From the NCBI GenBank assembly GCA_965249725.1, contig CBDFMQ010000002.1, positions 2,080,001-2,144,000 of the forward strand: a stretch of 64,000 nucleotides of DNA, given 5' to 3'. Positions 27,001-33,000 of the stretch are shown one piece after another. Every line of letters begins with the position of its first letter. The stretch's first letter is position 1. The position numbers are program-made. This stretch comes from Longimicrobiales bacterium (GTDB lineage: Bacteria; Gemmatimonadota; Gemmatimonadetes; Longimicrobiales; Gaopeijiaceae).

Positions 27001-30000
27001 CGGAATCAGATCCTCGACGTCGTGGGATTCGATCTCTCTTGTCATGGCGGCCGTTCCTGGAGTGAGTCCGTTCGCTTCCACTGTACGGAGATCCAGTATA
27101 CTTAGTTTCAGCATACTCGAATTCAGATCTCGAGTACCGCACCCTCCGGACCGACATTGTGGATCTCCGTCAATCCCAGGAACGAGCGCTGACCCCAGCA
27201 CCCATGGATATGGCCGCACACGACCAGGCTTGGCTCCGCACGCTCAATCGCCTCGAGGACGGCACGGCTCCCCAGATGCGCTCCTCCTCCGGCCTCGTCG
27301 ACGTGCCCGTACGGAGGCGAGTGGCTCACCAGGACGGCGTGCGAAGGGCAAGCCTCGAGCATCTCATGCGCTTCTTGCTCACTGAGGTCGAAGCTCCAAG
27401 AGCCGAAGGGGGTGGCGGGGATACCGGCACCGATGCCGAAGAAGTCGACACCGTCGATGCTCACGCCGCCGCCGTGCAGCACGTGGCCCGCCTCCCACCC
27501 GCGGCAAACCTCCCGCAGCTCCGCGTCGGACTCGCCGTTTCCGGGCACGAGCACCGTGGGACGCGCGATCTCCCGTAGGATATCCATCACGTCCTCGATG
27601 CCTCCGCGCTTGACCGCGAAGTCCCCCGCCCCGATGACCACGTCCACACTATCCGAGCGCTCCACGATGGACCGGGCCGCCGCCTGGTCGCGGTGCAAAT
27701 CACTGAAAGCCAGAAGCCTCATGGCTTCAACCTCTTCTCGATTCGGTCCGGGAGCGGGGCGTCCCTAAGTGTCGCCAATGATCCTTCCCGAATCCAGCGG
27801 TGCCGAGGGACCGTCAGAGCGAGAGCGGGGATCTACCAACCTGCCATCGCCTCCAAATCAGATAGACGGCAGGGATGACCACGAGGGTGAGAACGGTCGT
27901 ACTGATCATCCCCCCCACCATTGGGGCCGCGATGCGCTTCATCACGTCCGATCCAGCACCGTGTCCCCAGAGGATGGGCATGAGGCCCACCGTGATAGCC
28001 GTAACCGTCATGACGACGGGACGTTGATAGGAATCGGACCGAAGATGCTTGACCTTGGAGTGTACTCCAGGCTTTAGTTTACGCTTATGGTCGAGCGAAG
28101 ACTCGGCCGGGGCGTATCGTTCGGACGTCCCCAACGCGGCGCAGCAAGGAGGAATCCGATGAAACAGCAGGCCTACTCGCTTTGTCCGGAGTGCACGGCG
28201 TGTCCGGAGGTGACGTTTCTCGAGGACGGCAAGGTCAGCATTGGTGAGGCACCGAACCTCGTTACCCTGACGCGGGAGGAGTGGAACGTCCTGGTTCGCC
28301 TCGTGCGCTCCGGCATGGTCGCGGAGTCACATGGCTGAATCCCGCGCCGCGGCTTCGTCCGCGCTGGTCGCGGCTTTCGGGACTCTCGTCTGCTGTGCTC
28401 TGCCGTCGCTCCTAGTCCTGCTCGGCTTTGGATCTACGGTCGCTGCGGCGGTCTCGGCTGCTCCCTGGCTCGTGGTTTTGTCTCAGAACAAGGCGTGGGT
28501 ATTCCTCGCGTCCGGTCTGTTGATCATCGGGAGTCGAGGGTACTCCGAGTACGTCGTGCCTCGCATCGTCCCGGAGGGGGCCACGTGTCCGCCCGCGCTC
28601 GGGCGGTGGACTCGCGCCATCTGGTGGACTTCCGTCGGGGTGTATGGTGTTGGATTCTTCGTCGCTTTCGCCCTCGGGCCCATCCTGATGAGGCTCGAAG
28701 GCTGATGCCTCTTTCCGTCCTGAGGTGCCTTCTCGGTATGACCGCCGCCGCGGCGATCGTGGCGCCGCCCTTGTCCTCCCAGGGACACGGGCCAGTGTAC
28801 GGGCTCTCTACGCCGACGCTTGGGCGCGGCGGGTGGAGCCTCGACGTGGCGGGCATGGGACGGTTCATCGAGGGAGGTCGGATGGCGATGATCCGCCCCA
28901 TGCTCAGCTTCGGAGTAACCGAGGACCTCCAGGTATCGGTGTCGATTCCCGTCAGACTGGAACGCGATTCGGTGACTCCTGGGGTGCGGGCCTTTACAAG
29001 GATGCCAGCCTCTCAGGACGTCGAGATGATGGTGGGCTGGCGGTTGCAGAGACGGGGCACGGGTGTGGGTGCCCGACGAGAGACGACGGTCTGGTTGGCT
29101 GCAGACGTACCGACGGACGGGCGTCGCGAGGGACTCGAGACGGCACCCAGTCTCTTTGGCTCCATCGTCACCGGGTACGCTTCGCGTTCGGCCTACCTCT
29201 GGTTGGGAGGGGCCTACGAGCGCTCACTCACGGCCGGACTGGAACATGACCGTGCGGGGGACGTCGCGATGGGAAGCCTGGTCATCGGCTATCGACCGCC
29301 GTCGTTTCGCGGAGACTACCCATCTGCGGACTGGCGTGCCTTCATCGAAGTCGTGGGAGAGGCCGTACGGCGCGACCGGGTCGGAGGCGTCGAAGTGGCG
29401 GACAGCTGTGGCCGACAGCTATACGGCGCCCTCACCCTCCTCGGCCTCTACGGCTCCTGGGGACTGGCCGGCGGGCCGGCCTTCCCCCTATATCAGTCAC
29501 TGAACGGGAATCAATCGGACGAAGGCGTGCGCCTGGCTTTGAACGCGACGTTCTGGTTCTAACCCAAGGAGAGACTTGCTCATGTACAAACCTATCCTTC
29601 TGGCACTCACTGCCGTTGCGCTGCTATCGGGAGCGGCGGAAGCCCAGCTTCGCTCAGTCGAGCAGTCGATCTATGGGATGGACTGAAGTGTCTGCGCCCA
29701 CGCCGTGAGCGTGGCAGTGAAGAAGCTCGACGGGGTCGAGAGTGCAGACGTCAGCCTGAACGAGGGTCGTGTCAGCGTACAGTTCTCTTCCGAGAACGGG
29801 GTGACAATCGACCAGCTTCGCCGAACGATCCGGGATCAGGGCTTCTCACCGAGGGACGCGATGCTGACCCTGTCGGCGGTGATCGAGATGCGTGACGGGG
29901 CACTCGTCGCGGTGGTTCCTGGCTCCGGAGCGGCCTACACGCTAACGGCCGAAGAGTCGATCCGCTCTCGGCTGACGAGCGCCACCGGTGGCACGGTCAT

Positions 30001-33000
30001 CGTCCGGGGACGCGTGGAGGCGGACGAGAACGATGAGACTCCCACCTCACTAGCCGTAACCCTTGTGGGTGGTGGGTGATGGCAGAAGGTCTCCCATGAG
30101 AATCGGTGAGTTGGCTCGGCAGGCTGGGGTGACGCCCGATGCGCTTCGCTTTTACGAGCGCTCCGGGCTCATCTCACCGCCTCCTCGCACCCCGGGTGGA
30201 TACCGGAACTACGGGGCCGTCGTCCTTGAGGACCTGAGCTTCATTCGTAAGGGACAGGCCCTTGGCCTCCGCCTCGCAGAGATCCGTGAGGTGATGGCGA
30301 TGACGGCGGACGGGCAGGTGCCTTGCGCACATGTGCGCTCAGCGGTCGTGGCTCGGCTCGAGGAAGTGGAGCGCCGGATCTCCGAGCTTCGGGCGCTACG
30401 CACGGCGTTGAAGAGTGCGTTGACCCGTCTCGACACGACGGGTCTCTCGGCGCCGGGGTGTCGCTGCGCCGCGATCGAGGGGCTCGACTAGGAGCACACC
30501 CAACCAGTTGCGACTCGACTGACTCTGACGCGGCCGGCCTTGACCCTGTACTACGCCACAGGGTTTACTCTTGTATATGACCAAGACCGAAACGCTCACG
30601 ATCGGTCAGCTGGCGGCTTCGGCCGGTGTGGGACGCGAGACGATCCGGTACTACGAGCGGAAGAGCCTCCTCGAGGAGCCTCCGCGTTCGGCTGCTGGAT
30701 ACCGCCACTATCCTCCCGATGTCCCTCGGCGGCTCCGCTTCATCTGTCGCGCGCAGGAGTTGGGATTCACGCTGGCCGAGATCTCGGGCCTCCTCGATCT
30801 GCGCGTGGACGAAGTCTCCGCGTATGCCGCGGTGGAGACGAGGGCGCGCGAGAAGCTGGAGGTTGCTGTGAAGGAATCGATGAAGGCCACGGTATCGGGC
30901 GTCGGCGGTGTCTTGGCAGCGACAGGGTCCGCGCTGTGCTGCGCCGGACCGGTGGTGGCTGTGAGCTTGGGCGTTTCGGGTGCCGGACTGTCGGCTTTCG
31001 AGCCTTTCAGGCCCTACTTCCTCGGTGCGACCGCCGCCTTTCTCGCGACCGCGCCGAGGGGTTCGTCACGTTCGATACAACCATGACATCGGTGGCCGAG
31101 ATCGTAGCTGAGTTGAGACGGATGACGGCCTTCAGCGCGACCGAGCGACCGGATTCAGGAGGCTGAAGATGAATACCCCACGCATCGAGCTGGTCTACTT
31201 CGAGGGCTGCCCGAACGCTTCGCAGGCAAGGGAGAACATTCGGGCCGCCGTTGAAGCCTCCGGAAGGCCGCTCGAGTGGTCCGAGTGGGACCTTATGGCG
31301 GAGTCAACGCCCGAAGACCTCCAGCGCTACGGTTCGCCCACAGTGTTGATCGACGGTCAGGATGTAACTGGAGAAGGCACCGGCGCGGTCGCGATGGCCT
31401 GCCGGGCCGACGGAGCCCCTTCGGTCGCCTTGATCGCAGAGAGACTACAGTAACCGTCGTCGAGTTCGGAGCCCTGAGTGACTCAGGCCAAGAGGATGGT
31501 AAGTCATCAAGAACGCCCTAACTCGCGAGTTGCCCCGGGTCGGACCCCTCGATGCCCACGGGCCCGGGCGCGATAGTTAGCCTGGTAGACGTGAGTTCGG
31601 CAATGCGGTTCGCCTAATCGCGCCGCTAGTAGGACGGAGGACTCGGAGGCCAGCCCTTGTCCTTGCATGATCAGGATCGCAACGTCGTTGGTTGCTACAG
31701 GATCTCTCCCATCGATCTGAAACCCGAGGGCAAGCCCATGAATATCCAGCGATGCCGAAGCGTGTGGACGCTGGGCGCTGTGTTGATTACTGCCCTCGCC
31801 GGCGACGCCGGGGCGGCGATGCAACAGAGTCCCAAGGATGAGGTAGCCTCGGTGGTCGGCGCCTTTCATGTGGCTCTCGCGGCAGGCGATTCGGTCGCCG
31901 CGCTGACCCACCTGGCCGATGACGTGGTCATCCTGGAGGGCGGTGCGGTCGAGGACAAGGAGCACTACCGCTCCGGACACCTGGCCGGGGACATGCGCTT
32001 CGCTCAGGCCGTGCCCCGAGAGCGTAGCGAAATCGAAGTCCGCCTCATCGGTGATGTCGCGTGGGCTCATTCGACCAGCATAACCCAGGGCCAAATGGGC
32101 GACCGTGAGATCAATTCGCAGGGTGCTGAGCTCGCCGTGTTAACCCGAGAGGGTGGGACTTGGCGGATCAAGGCCATTCACTGGTCATCCCGACAGCGAC
32201 GGTAACCTGTTTGCGGGAGCACAGTGTGGATGGGTCAAGGCGGGTCCATGGGCCCCGGAGTGCCTCCTGGATGGACGCCCATGGACGGTAGTGGCCGTAC
32301 AGGCGGGGGCGTCTAGAGATTTTGAACGCACCCCGAGGGCCTGCGCGGTCACCTCGACGTCGCCCTCTCACGGACAAGCCCCTACTCGTCCGGGATCGGC
32401 CTCTCCTCACCCGTAGCCAGGTTGCGATGATGCATGATCGTATTGAACACGAGGCCATACGACCCCAGCGTCTCACTGCGCCAGAACGGATTGAAGCTGA
32501 ACATGATCACGTGTCCATCGCCGAGGGATACGTCCAGGAGTGCCGGGGCGCCGGCCAGGGTCTCGCCATTGCGAAGGCCACCGCTGATCAGGAGATCTTC
32601 AACGTCACGGCTGTACCGCATGACGGTGCGAACGCGATTCGTGGCCGTGGAACCACCACCCTCGTCGTCTCCCTGCTCGGCCCTGAACGCTTCGACTCCG
32701 GCCTCACCCAGGTCACCGCGACGCCCCTGGACCACATCGGCCTCGTCCGCGCCTCCACGACCCGTGCGCCGAGTGGTCGTGCTCCCCGGTCCGCCCAGAT
32801 CCTCGGGCTCGCTGAAGCCGAATCCGCCGAAGCCGCCACGGCCGCCCCCTCCCACCTGGAAGATGGGAGCGGTGTTGAAGTACACACCCAGATCGTCACC
32901 GTAGCCGTAGGTGATCGGACTGTCGGGGTCGGCCACCTGAGCTCTGAAGACGCCACCCCGAGCCCAGAGGTCGGGTGTCGTGCGAATGGTCACTCCCTGC

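Follow-up and report, generated by a model that had tools for sequence, protein, structure and literature searches.

An exported heavy-metal-binding protein with a second, OB-like domain is best read as a selenoprotein in a Longimicrobiales bacterium

The gene g03064 of a Longimicrobiales bacterium (Gemmatimonadota) is best read, on comparative sequence evidence, as encoding a selenoprotein in which selenocysteine (Sec) replaces the first metal-holding Cys of a heavy-metal-binding (HMA) domain. The gene product is a real, exported, metal-binding protein, and it belongs to a widespread family of soil bacteria. We consider it quite probable that this Sec-decoded HMA/OB protein takes part in a MerA-independent metal relay of the cell envelope. 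The window analysed here is a stretch of 64,000 nucleotides (positions 2,080,001 to 2,144,000 of contig CBDFMQ010000002.1), and all features with window coordinates below lie on its forward strand.

Gene model and conservation of the in-frame UGA

The gene g03064 (29582..30079) forms one frame of 165 codons plus a TGA stop. It opens with the ATG at 29582, its stop codon occupies 30077-30079, and the ribosome-binding site AAGGAG lies 9-16 nt upstream. Codon 35 at 29684..29686 (contig position 2109684) is an in-frame TGA in the context G-M-D-U-S-V-C, the HMA metal loop, and aligns with the first Cys of the CxxC motif in Cys-form orthologues; we read it as Sec. The coordinates given in the survey's finding that we followed up here are confirmed. 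The read-through product matched Pfam HMA PF00403 across the TGA (E 1.1e-12; 48.6 bits against a cut-off of 24.8).

Sec-form orthologues of g03064, for which the survey had made no search, were found. TGA occupies the same alignment column in 9/9 full-length relatives (38-62% identity) from 401 genomes of the phylum, or 8/8 without the unpublished genome G182, and in 59 of the 77 public loci of other species obtained by scanning a single genome for each species. The remaining 18 loci possess Cys (TGC or TGT) there, the 59:18 ratio being skewed towards Sec forms because the peptide pattern of the scan took in residues encoded by the hairpin described below. These 77 loci span Gemmatimonadota, Acidobacteriota, Planctomycetota, Myxococcota and others. 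Upstream of the UGA, both the signal peptide and Q-T-I-F-G-M-D are preserved in frame; G-M-D never varies, although synonymous substitutions occur in its Gly and Asp codons. Judged from these alignments, the region upstream of the UGA is coding, and the TGA is conserved among the relatives of g03064 beyond chance expectation.

Gene callers cut the family at the UGA: 19 of 20 sequence homologues begin just past the site. When the C-terminal domain only was used as the query, 77 of the best 150 representatives began no more than 12 residues after the UGA site, and only 14 of these 150 were full-length CxxC forms. The family is missing from the selenoprotein lists searched because gene finders shorten it.

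The Sec machinery claimed for this genome was located in full, namely tRNA-Sec (C3 c[1047033-1047129]), selA (C3:745475) and selB (C3:1088488), to which we add selD (C1:279375-280298), itself a UGA gene. Among the phylum genomes, SelA was found in 321/401, and its co-occurrence with the Sec form therefore says little; one Sec-form holder, G182 (95% complete, 250 contigs), yielded no SelA. The survey listed nine selenoprotein genes, g03064 included. All nine UGA sites are present, and the other eight exist as in-frame TGAs with the motifs and Pfam families assigned to them, at positions typical of Sec in these families. Nevertheless, the list lacks selD, another gene with a UGA, and is therefore not complete.

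The SECIS-like hairpin and the decoding of the UGA

A SECIS-like hairpin lies at 29696..29715, 12-31 nt after the UGA. Numbered from the U of the UGA, it consists of a G13-C32 pair, a bulged C14 and six pairs between 15-20 and 26-31, with the loop C-G-U-G-A at nt 21-25. Both the distance and the G-U loop fit the bacterial SECIS layout, for which E. coli fdhF serves as the model. In the Sec forms, base pairing holds in 98.8% of the 413 cells of the hairpin alignment, and one pair shows a compensatory change from C-G to U-A, in addition to two U-G changes. Covariation is thin because nearly all pairs are invariant, with a single pair doubly changed and an observed score that was reached by 27 of 500 shuffles.

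Synonymous codon usage was examined in 58 distinct Sec-form sequences. Codons +5 to +9 are each held to a single codon (CAC 56/56, GCC 58/58, GTG 58/58, CGC 44/44 and GTG 56/58), with a third-position entropy of 0-0.22 bit as against 1.4-1.84 bit at other invariant four-fold codons within the gene, and the flanking codons vary freely. The Cys forms lack the hairpin and have the residues A-P-C-A-Y-G there with normal codon variety; nt 10-36 fold with a mean energy of -11.6 kcal/mol in the Sec forms versus -5.6 kcal/mol in the Cys forms. The survey had quoted hairpin energies, which by themselves are no evidence because the genome has 64% G+C; taken alone, the hairpin of g03064 does not stand out significantly from shuffled sequences (z-score of -1.7 to -1.8; 10 of 200 shuffles equally stable). 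What stands is a conserved hairpin under synonymous constraint. Together with the conserved in-frame UGA, the Cys-form orthologues and the Sec machinery, this bears out the identification of g03064 as a selenoprotein.

It is highly improbable that the UGA is a true stop, in which case the gene would be broken or its product would be a 124-residue protein starting from GTG 29705. Gene calls under table 11 do give exactly this product, and g03064 itself ends in TGA, so that TGA works as a stop in this genome. Nevertheless, a break at the same codon is unlikely in ~60 species at 30-60% identity, the Cys forms are full length, and the 34 in-frame upstream codons are conserved together with the signal peptide, whereas the short product would have neither an export signal nor the first strand and first metal ligand. 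Hardly any likelier is that the UGA is decoded in a selenium-free way, for example by a near-cognate tRNA as Cys or Trp, with the hairpin acting as a read-through stimulator only. Although the inserted residue cannot be told from sequence alone, all of the Sec machinery is encoded in the genome, the codon stands at known Sec positions in at least nine other UGA genes, the codon in g03064 falls on a metal-ligand Cys, a classic site of Sec/Cys exchange, and the hairpin has the distance and loop of a bacterial SECIS. We thus favour Sec insertion: the ribosome would read UGA 29684 as Sec, and the hairpin would bind SelB carrying Sec-tRNA(Sec).

Protein architecture and nearest known families

Read by eye, residues 1-21 (29582..29644) form a signal-peptide-like N-terminus with A-E-A before Q-L, of which residues 3-15 were modelled as a lone helix; such an N-terminus is present in 8/9 orthologues and also occurs in Cys forms. 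The HMA domain with the G-M-D-U-S-V-C loop follows at residues 23-92 (29648..29857), as delimited by PF00403 and the structure model, and has the topology beta-alpha-beta-beta-alpha-beta (pLDDT 90.8). Its best fold matches in Foldseek were CopZ, HMA7 and MerP (E 3.5e-6 to 1e-3), and VIA-align gave a Z of 9.2 against CCC2a. Residues 96-165 (29867..30076) are predicted to form a C-terminal OB-like beta domain with the topology b-b-b-helix-b-b. VIA-align matched residues 92-165 weakly to YgiW (1nnx, Z 5.6) and PriB (3fhw, Z 5.3), and a profile of this domain retrieved 307 cluster representatives. The protein had been described as single-domain, which we reject because of this additional C-terminal domain.

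The protein falls outside every NCBIfam model; its best score, 62 bits for CopZ, is short of the cut-off of 91. It had also been called MerP-like, and as a statement of family membership this is not supported: the score for TIGR02052 was 39.1 against a cut-off of 92.55, and no MerA over the cut-off was found in the genome (best 322.9 bits against 454.45). The g03064 protein does share with MerP an exported HMA domain, a two-ligand loop, a place beside MerR-type and MerT-like genes and the fold (1osd, E 7e-5; 1afi, Z 6.1), but differs in having Sec for the first Cys, Asp for the preceding Thr, the extra domain and a barrel partner.

HMA domains with Sec have been described before, in P-type ATPases with UxxC, in NF041115 and in the MerT/CopZ fusion NF045683. 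The P-type ATPases (E1-E2 cation pumps with an N-terminal HMA domain) carry Sec at the same loop position, but their HMA domain is cytoplasmic and fused to the pump, whereas that of g03064 is exported and free-standing; the g03064 protein reaches 18-28 bits with their models, whose cut-offs are 1005 to 1316. NF041115 likewise describes a small HMA-fold protein with Sec in its metal loop, albeit as U-x-x-U instead of U-x-x-C. The g03064 protein reaches only 46.9 bits against its cut-off of 95, and is set apart by the signal peptide, the 70-residue OB-like domain and the barrel/MerT-like cassette. With NF045683 (cut-off 375), the g03064 protein reaches 17 bits. A 2008 ocean survey names a 'MerP' selenoprotein, of which the two reads correspond to an unrelated 33-residue fragment. 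Term searches of two selenoprotein reviews recovered no HMA, MerP or PF00403 entry. The claim of novelty thus has to be narrowed: Sec in HMA domains as such is not new, but a free-standing exported HMA selenoprotein, claimed by no NCBIfam model and without a review entry, is supported as new within these limits.

The gene cassette

In a conserved cassette, genes for a MerT-like membrane protein and an outer-membrane barrel precede g03064, which is the final structural gene, and MerR-type regulators adjoin. A putative MerR-type promoter/operator was recognised by eye at 28050..28085, consisting of TTGACC, a 19-nt spacer with an imperfect dyad and TTAGTT. MerR-type promoters have such a long-spacer architecture. 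The dyad was the only 'terminator-like' site in a terminator scan. The first operon gene (28160..28338), overlapping the next start by 8 nt, encodes a 59-aa protein with C-P-E-C-T-A-C-P and a weak, below-cut-off match to Pfam Usp-48; a homologue lies beside the cassette in 4/85 loci.

The MerT-like inner-membrane protein (28331..28705; 124 aa) has vicinal Cys-Cys in its first transmembrane helix, and its gene adjoins the HMA gene in 60/85 loci. Its likeness to MerT comes from a Pfam MerT match of E 1.7 only and an Atlas lead to clusters auto-named MerT (scores 0.94-0.95). In 6 Acidobacteriota loci it reads C-U, as in the first helix of MerT-family selenoproteins ('putative mercuric transport protein'; NF045683), in contrast to the C-C of the window.

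The start of the next gene (28705..29562; 285 aa) overlaps the preceding stop (TGATG). The encoded protein carries a signal peptide, shows an invariant G-H-G-P at the N-terminus of its mature part and F-W-F at the C-terminus, and was modelled by AlphaFold2 as an outer-membrane beta-barrel of 12 strands (pLDDT 91.7). It lies upstream of the HMA gene in 83/85 loci, the other 2 beginning at a contig end. Foldseek related it to two plugged barrels of 12 strands, FapF (5o68, E 5e-8, TM 0.64-0.66) and the COG4313/Phenol_MetA_deg channel 4rl8 (TM 0.62), and its Atlas lead was PF13557. Nevertheless, neither Pfam, searched up to E 10, nor NCBIfam gave a match, and the protein bears a motif of its own, G-H-G-P-x-[FY]-G-L-x-T-P-T. 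We know of no link between COG4313/FapF-type barrels and metal handling.

Directly after g03064, the MerR-type gene noticed in the survey is confirmed as that of a MerR-family metal regulator (30096..30491; Pfam MerR_1 and MerR-DNA-bind), a homologue of which occurs in 36/85 loci. One of its three Cys lies in the dimer helix region, and C-R-C is close to the C-terminus; its NCBIfam scores were all below cut-off (ZntR 100.9, CueR 89.8, MerR 87.2 and CadR 86.1 bits). A possible second long-spacer promoter of MerR type, with a perfect 5-6 bp dyad, was the one match of a pattern search (30539..30575), and is weak alone because 28 of 100 shuffles also give at least one match. Further downstream are a MerR HTH joined to a MerT-like transmembrane segment that bears Cys-Cys (30577..31086; Pfam MerR_1 plus MerT at residues 107-161, and NCBIfam) and a thioredoxin-like 'DF family (seleno)protein' in its Cys form (31169..31453; NF049942, 48.7 bits against a cut-off of 70). 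In other species, the surroundings include P1B-type ATPases, MerT-HMA fusions and additional HMA genes.

Possible function in metal transfer

The mature protein would comprise the HMA metal-binding domain followed by the OB-like domain, and the selenolate of U35 and the thiolate of C38, probably with the invariant Asp34, may hold a soft metal ion. In the periplasm, it would work with the 12-strand outer-membrane channel and the MerT-like inner-membrane protein, whose Cys-Cys pair reads Cys-Sec in some species, under the control of a MerR-type metal-sensing regulator. Such a set could relay metal across the envelope with no need of MerA, either as uptake for detoxification or as capture; the direction, the identity of the metal and contact among the three proteins are all inferred.

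Alternatively, U-x-x-C may be a redox centre, making the protein a periplasmic selenosulfide/dithiol oxidoreductase on an HMA scaffold, to which the membrane Cys-Cys protein hands electrons over like CcdA/DsbD-type proteins. In the selenoprotein tables consulted, most bacterial entries belong to thiol oxidoreductases that bear UxxC or CxxU, the thioredoxin-like gene of the DF family is found 1 kb downstream, and the genome is without MerA over the cut-off. We regard this as rather unlikely, as the protein has the fold and motif of metal-binding HMA domains, the regulators, with three Cys, belong to the MerR family of metal sensors, the neighbours elsewhere are metal-handling genes of the kinds named above, and only 8/85 loci contain the DF gene. 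A metal relay is preferred, and the metal is most likely a divalent, thiophilic one, such as Hg, Cd, Pb or Zn. That it is instead Cu(I), handled in the periplasm by a chaperone of the CopZ/CusF kind, is slightly easier to entertain than the redox role, but still improbable. Copper proteins are the top sequence and fold matches, with CopZ, ATP7B and CCC2a leading the fold and structure comparisons, and selenolate is a good Cu(I) ligand. However, the CopZ score stays below its cut-off, the MerT-like partners point to Hg-type transport, and a Cys of the adjacent regulator is in what we take to be the position class used by divalent-metal MerR proteins. Furthermore, the solved Cu(I)-type HMA domains in the alignment have Thr, Ser or His where the g03064 family has an invariant Asp before Sec or Cys, and G-M-D-C-x-x-C is linked to the Zn/Cd/Pb-type domains of ZntA and ZiaA.

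An in-frame UGA in g03064

Reading through the TGA at window positions 29684-29686 gives g03064 a 165-codon frame (29582-30079, + strand), which is divided into two ORFs of 36 and 124 codons by table 11 translation. The survey's finding had located an in-frame TGA at contig position 2109684, which is window position 29684, and the UGA-split gene it reported proved to be real. The product has a signal-peptide-like start ending in A-E-A, followed by Q-L-R-S-V-E-Q-S-I-Y-G-M-D-U-S-V-C. As g03064 itself terminates in TGA, this codon is an ordinary stop in the genome. The gene bears the mark of a bacterial selenoprotein gene, namely an in-frame UGA at a position where homologues have Cys, and our computations demonstrate that this UGA is conserved; it most likely directs the insertion of selenocysteine (Sec).

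Among 5.8 billion proteins, we found 20 homologues. Nineteen of them (120-132 residues, starting with M-[SR]-V-A-V or similar) begin just past the UGA site, and the other is a full-length Cys form carrying a signal peptide. Such misplaced starts in gene calls may be why the family has gone unnoticed. When 401 genomes of the phylum were searched in six frames, nine full-length matches with 38-62% identity emerged, each with exactly one internal TGA. The TGA column is kept in all nine (8/8 without the unpublished genome G182), always within [FY]-G-M-D-U-[AS]-V-C-A-[HY]-A-V, and an in-frame signal peptide lies upstream of the TGA at eight of the nine loci.

A pattern scan over one genome per species returned 77 loci, 59 of which have TGA at the site (60/78 in the column count); apart from a few bins with the label Pseudomonadota, these belong to Gemmatimonadota, Acidobacteriota, Planctomycetota and Myxococcota. 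The other 18 loci, from Gammaproteobacteria, Ignavibacteriota, Rhodothermota, Balneolota and Verrucomicrobiota, have TGC or TGT. The 59:18 ratio leans to Sec forms, as one of the two scan patterns spans hairpin-encoded residues. A less biased census, in which a profile of the C-terminal domain alone was run against 1.84 billion representatives (E up to 0.001), detected 307 cluster representatives, the majority of which carry annotations as truncated proteins. Among the best 150 of these 307, 77 begin at most 12 residues past the UGA site and 14 are full-length with C-x-x-C, while the other 59 are a mixture of further proteins starting past the site, fragments, and five long repeat proteins that are unrelated. 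The bacterial selenoproteome gains a family that is widespread and in most cases contains Sec, together with corrected gene models for its proteins.

On a quick tree of 70 family members, from which the site and hairpin columns were left out, the Sec/Cys label needs four changes, compared with a mean of 14.6 for shuffled labels (0/500 shuffles were as low). The g03064 protein falls within a six-member Gemmatimonadota Sec clade (support 96). The tree is poorly resolved, with 31 of its 67 inner branches open, and gives no direction of the Sec/Cys change.

Two family entries have unusual architectures. At two loci of one Gemmatimonadota genome (L015:1519-1959 and L075, around 3052), the HMA gene is in frame with the gene of the outer-membrane barrel described below, and the stop, the terminal F-W-F and the signal peptide that would separate the two are all missing. 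Either a natural fusion/deletion or an error of assembly accounts for this. The 171-residue database homologue P0003 contains a 47-residue internal duplication of the HMA/OB junction, which is probably an assembly artefact.

A hairpin immediately 3' of the UGA

The UGA is followed directly by a 7-pair hairpin at nt 13-32, counted from the U of UGA. Nucleotides 15-20 (C-C-A-C-G-C) pair with nt 26-31 (G-C-G-U-G-G), a G13-C32 pair spans the bulged C14, and the loop reads C-G-U-G-[AC]. Its G-U lies at nt 22-23 in g03064; the loop G-U of the Escherichia coli fdhF SECIS lies at nt 23-24. In an alignment of 59 distinct Sec sequences, pairing holds in 98.8% of 413 cells. Five of the seven pairs never vary, and one shows a C-G to U-A double change in addition to U-G changes; the observed covariation score was reached by 27 of 500 shuffles. 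Folding energy was set aside as evidence, the 42-nt and 77-nt folds giving only z -1.8 and -1.7 against shuffles.

A strong signal came from synonymous sites. The codons for H-A-V-R-V over the stem are frozen in 58 distinct Sec sequences (CAC 56/56, GCC 58/58, GTG 58/58, CGC 44/44 and GTG 56/58), the pattern expected of a SECIS within a coding region. Just beyond the stem, Gly, Val and Ala residues of equal invariance are each encoded by three or four codons, with third-position entropies of 1.4-1.84 bit. The hairpin is not present in the 18 Cys forms, which read A-P-C-A-Y-G-[IV]-E at this place with normal codon variety, and the local fold amounts to -5.6 kcal/mol in Cys forms versus -11.6 kcal/mol in Sec forms. 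The frozen sites are hard to explain by anything other than a SECIS. No Rfam family matched around the UGA site, the two hits (E 3.9 and 6.7) being chance, and we know of no bacterial SECIS model in Rfam. The frozen hairpin offers a clean natural SECIS set for studies of SelB recognition outside Proteobacteria.

Fold and predicted metal site of the g03064 protein

The Pfam HMA domain (PF00403) matches across the TGA (E 1.1e-12; 48.6 bits, cut-off 24.8), and a scan of the own genome with the same model gave 41.1 bits with one TGA inside the match. An AlphaFold2 model built on a 70-row alignment (mean pLDDT 90.8) has a lone N-terminal helix followed by an HMA fold at residues 23-92. This domain shows the beta-alpha-beta-beta-alpha-beta order and the G-M-x-C-x-x-C loop of HMA proteins, with U in place of the first C, and structure searches related it to CopZ, HMA7, CCC2a and MerP (E 3.5e-6 to 1e-3; Z up to 9.2). 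A second domain consists of strands 96-104, 107-111 and 118-122, helix 125-133, and strands 138-145 and 156-164. VIA-align found weak OB-fold matches for it (residues 92-165; Z 5.2-5.6, including YgiW at 5.6 and PriB at 5.3); Foldseek with the whole model returned only HMA matches and none for the C-terminal domain. The N-terminus resembles a signal peptide by eye, and the protein is probably exported.

G-M-D, U/C35 and C38 are invariant in the 70 alignment rows, and the aligned copper HMA domains have Thr, Ser or His where this family has Asp. G-M-D-C-x-x-C is the motif of the Zn/Cd/Pb-type domains of ZntA and ZiaA. Asp34, Sec35 and Cys38 may bind a soft, probably divalent, metal; in this exported protein selenium would serve to hold the metal, not as a redox catalyst.

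The survey's finding had called the protein single-domain and MerP/CopZ-like. Membership in MerP is not supported: the protein scores 39.1 bits against a cut-off of 92.55 for TIGR02052, and it is not part of a mer operon with MerA. Its signal-peptide-like N-terminus goes together with the second, OB-like domain. It also scores below the cut-offs of CopZ (NF033795; 62 versus 91 bits), of the P-type ATPase models and of the known HMA-selenoprotein models, namely the UxxU metal-binding (seleno)protein NF041115 (46.9 versus 95 bits; the motif in g03064 is U-S-V-C) and the MerT/CopZ fusion NF045683 (17 versus 375 bits; g03064 is without the membrane part). Sec in HMA domains is on record for P-type ATPases with UxxC, NF041115 and NF045683 (tables in PMC9312934 and PMC13188914; NCBIfam). 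A term search of the available text of these two papers found no HMA, MerP or PF00403 entry. A 2008 ocean survey (PMC2398784) lists a 'MerP' selenoprotein from two reads, but these encode an unrelated fragment of 33 residues that has a U-C dipeptide and lacks G-M-x-C-x-x-C, and we rejected it as a prior description. In the openly available full texts that were searched, we found no description of the family, which may have been listed earlier under another name. The g03064 product is not a MerP but a new form of the known HMA selenoproteins, one that is widespread and in most cases contains Sec.

Selenocysteine machinery and other UGA genes

The genome (three contigs, 4.16 Mb, 64% G+C) encodes the full set of tRNA-Sec, SelA, SelB and SelD expected of a genome with a bacterial selenoprotein gene. 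There is a single tRNA-SeC (contig C3, c[1047033-1047129]), selA was detected with E 8e-141, the SelB winged-helix domain lies inside a 681-codon frame, and selD scored 375 bits. The selD gene itself (G000:C1:279375-280298, - strand; locus L005) has one in-frame TGA in G-A-G-U-A-S-K, at the catalytic Cys/Sec position. SelA occurs in 321 of the 401 sampled genomes of the phylum, indicating that selenocysteine use is the norm in the group; at this frequency, its co-occurrence with the Sec form is uninformative. SelA was not seen in G182, one holder of the Sec form.

The survey's finding had read nine UGA-split genes as selenoproteins. The list is sound as far as tested, and short by at least selD, a tenth selenoprotein candidate. 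Besides g03064, all eight positions are in-frame TGAs, and the read-through products match the families assigned to them across the site: OsmC (A-G-U-L-L-G-T; Pfam OsmC), two peroxiredoxins (T-R-G-U and W-U-P-W-C; both Pfam AhpC-TSA), DUF3179 (F-U-P-A-C; Pfam DUF3179), FdhA (S-R-A-U-H; TIGR01591, 745.8 bits, over the cut-off), a DsbA-like protein (V-U-P-W-C; Pfam DSBA), a deiodinase-like protein (Y-T-U-P-P-F; Pfam T4_deiodinase) and an ArsM-like methyltransferase (A-A-U-I-G-G; Pfam methyltransferase families, with 196.4 bits, below the cut-off, for the NCBIfam arsenite methyltransferase). The raw folding energies of their hairpins range from -12.5 to -23.6 kcal/mol.

A conserved cassette and a possible metal relay

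Four genes lie head to tail and end with the selenoprotein gene. First comes a gene for a C-x-x-C protein of 59 residues (28160-28338), then one for a membrane protein of 124 residues whose first helix contains C-C (28331-28705), and third one for a 285-residue protein (28705-29562; start/stop overlap TGATG); g03064 is the last of the four, and a MerR-family regulator (30096-30491) follows downstream. The arrangement is conserved: the 285-residue gene is directly upstream in 83 of 85 related loci, the other two beginning at a contig end, and the membrane protein was found in 60 and a MerR in 36 of the 85. In other species, the cassette neighbours include P1B ATPases, MerT-HMA fusions, further HMA genes and, once, an integrase.

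The 285-residue protein was modelled (pLDDT 91.7) as a barrel of 12 strands that resembles FapF and the COG4313 channel (TM 0.62-0.66). Besides a signal peptide, the protein has G-H-G-P, which is invariant, at the mature end and closes with F-W-F; it gave no match in Pfam or NCBIfam, even at E 10. The likeness of the 124-residue protein to MerT comes from a weak Pfam match (E 1.7) and an Atlas lead. Its C-C reads C-U at six Acidobacteriota loci (L078, L079, L080, L081, L083 and L091), so that two cassette genes are UGA genes there; C-U is the motif reported for MerT-family selenoproteins in a 2022 preprint. No MerA over the cut-off was found in the genome, the best TIGR02053 match reaching 322.9 versus 454.45 bits, and none lies near the window.

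The HMA protein may cooperate with two partners from the cassette, the barrel and the MerT-like protein, under the control of a metal-sensing MerR. It is attractive to speculate that the three form a selenium-dependent, MerA-free metal relay in the envelope of Gemmatimonadota, Acidobacteriota and other bacteria common in soil, with Sec as the rule and not the exception. An outer-membrane channel dedicated to the task, a Sec-HMA-OB carrier in the periplasm and, in the inner membrane, a MerT-like protein with C-C or C-U would pass a thiophilic metal inwards to the cytoplasm or else trap it. We hold this joint reading only tentatively, as somewhat short of an even chance. If it is true, the extent to which these bacteria tolerate or use Hg, Cd and similar metals would be set by selenium supply. 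The three-gene cassette, which would link selenium availability to metal handling, is a testable system for toxic soft-metal handling in abundant, little-studied soil phyla and, as a conserved envelope cassette, merits experiments.

Several further features of the cassette and its surroundings were noticed. The mature barrels (window 28705-28790, alignment A4) all begin with x-G-H-G-P-x-[FY]-G-L-x-T-P-T; it is only an idea that this His, third in the mature chain, would suit a Cu/Ni-type site at the amino terminus. The C-U site lies about 1,200-1,800 nt into each of its loci, and a MerT-like ORF in locus L049 reads C-U too. Just upstream of the cassette, a 105-codon ORF (27814-28131, - strand) that matches only the last 56 positions of ACR_tran is what remains of a gene for an RND pump exporting metals or drugs. 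Two putative long-spacer promoters, each with a dyad, were recognised by eye, before the cassette and before a gene at 30577-31086 (+ strand), one of them weakly supported by a pattern search. The latter gene encodes a fusion of a MerR-HTH with a MerT-like part that has a transmembrane segment with Cys-Cys; it looks like a membrane-anchored metal regulator, and homologues are present in 38 of the 85 related loci. It is followed by a thioredoxin-like, Cys-form 'DF family (seleno)protein' (31169-31453, + strand; 48.7 bits, NCBIfam cut-off 70), which occurs in 8 of the 85 loci, mostly adjoining MerR genes.
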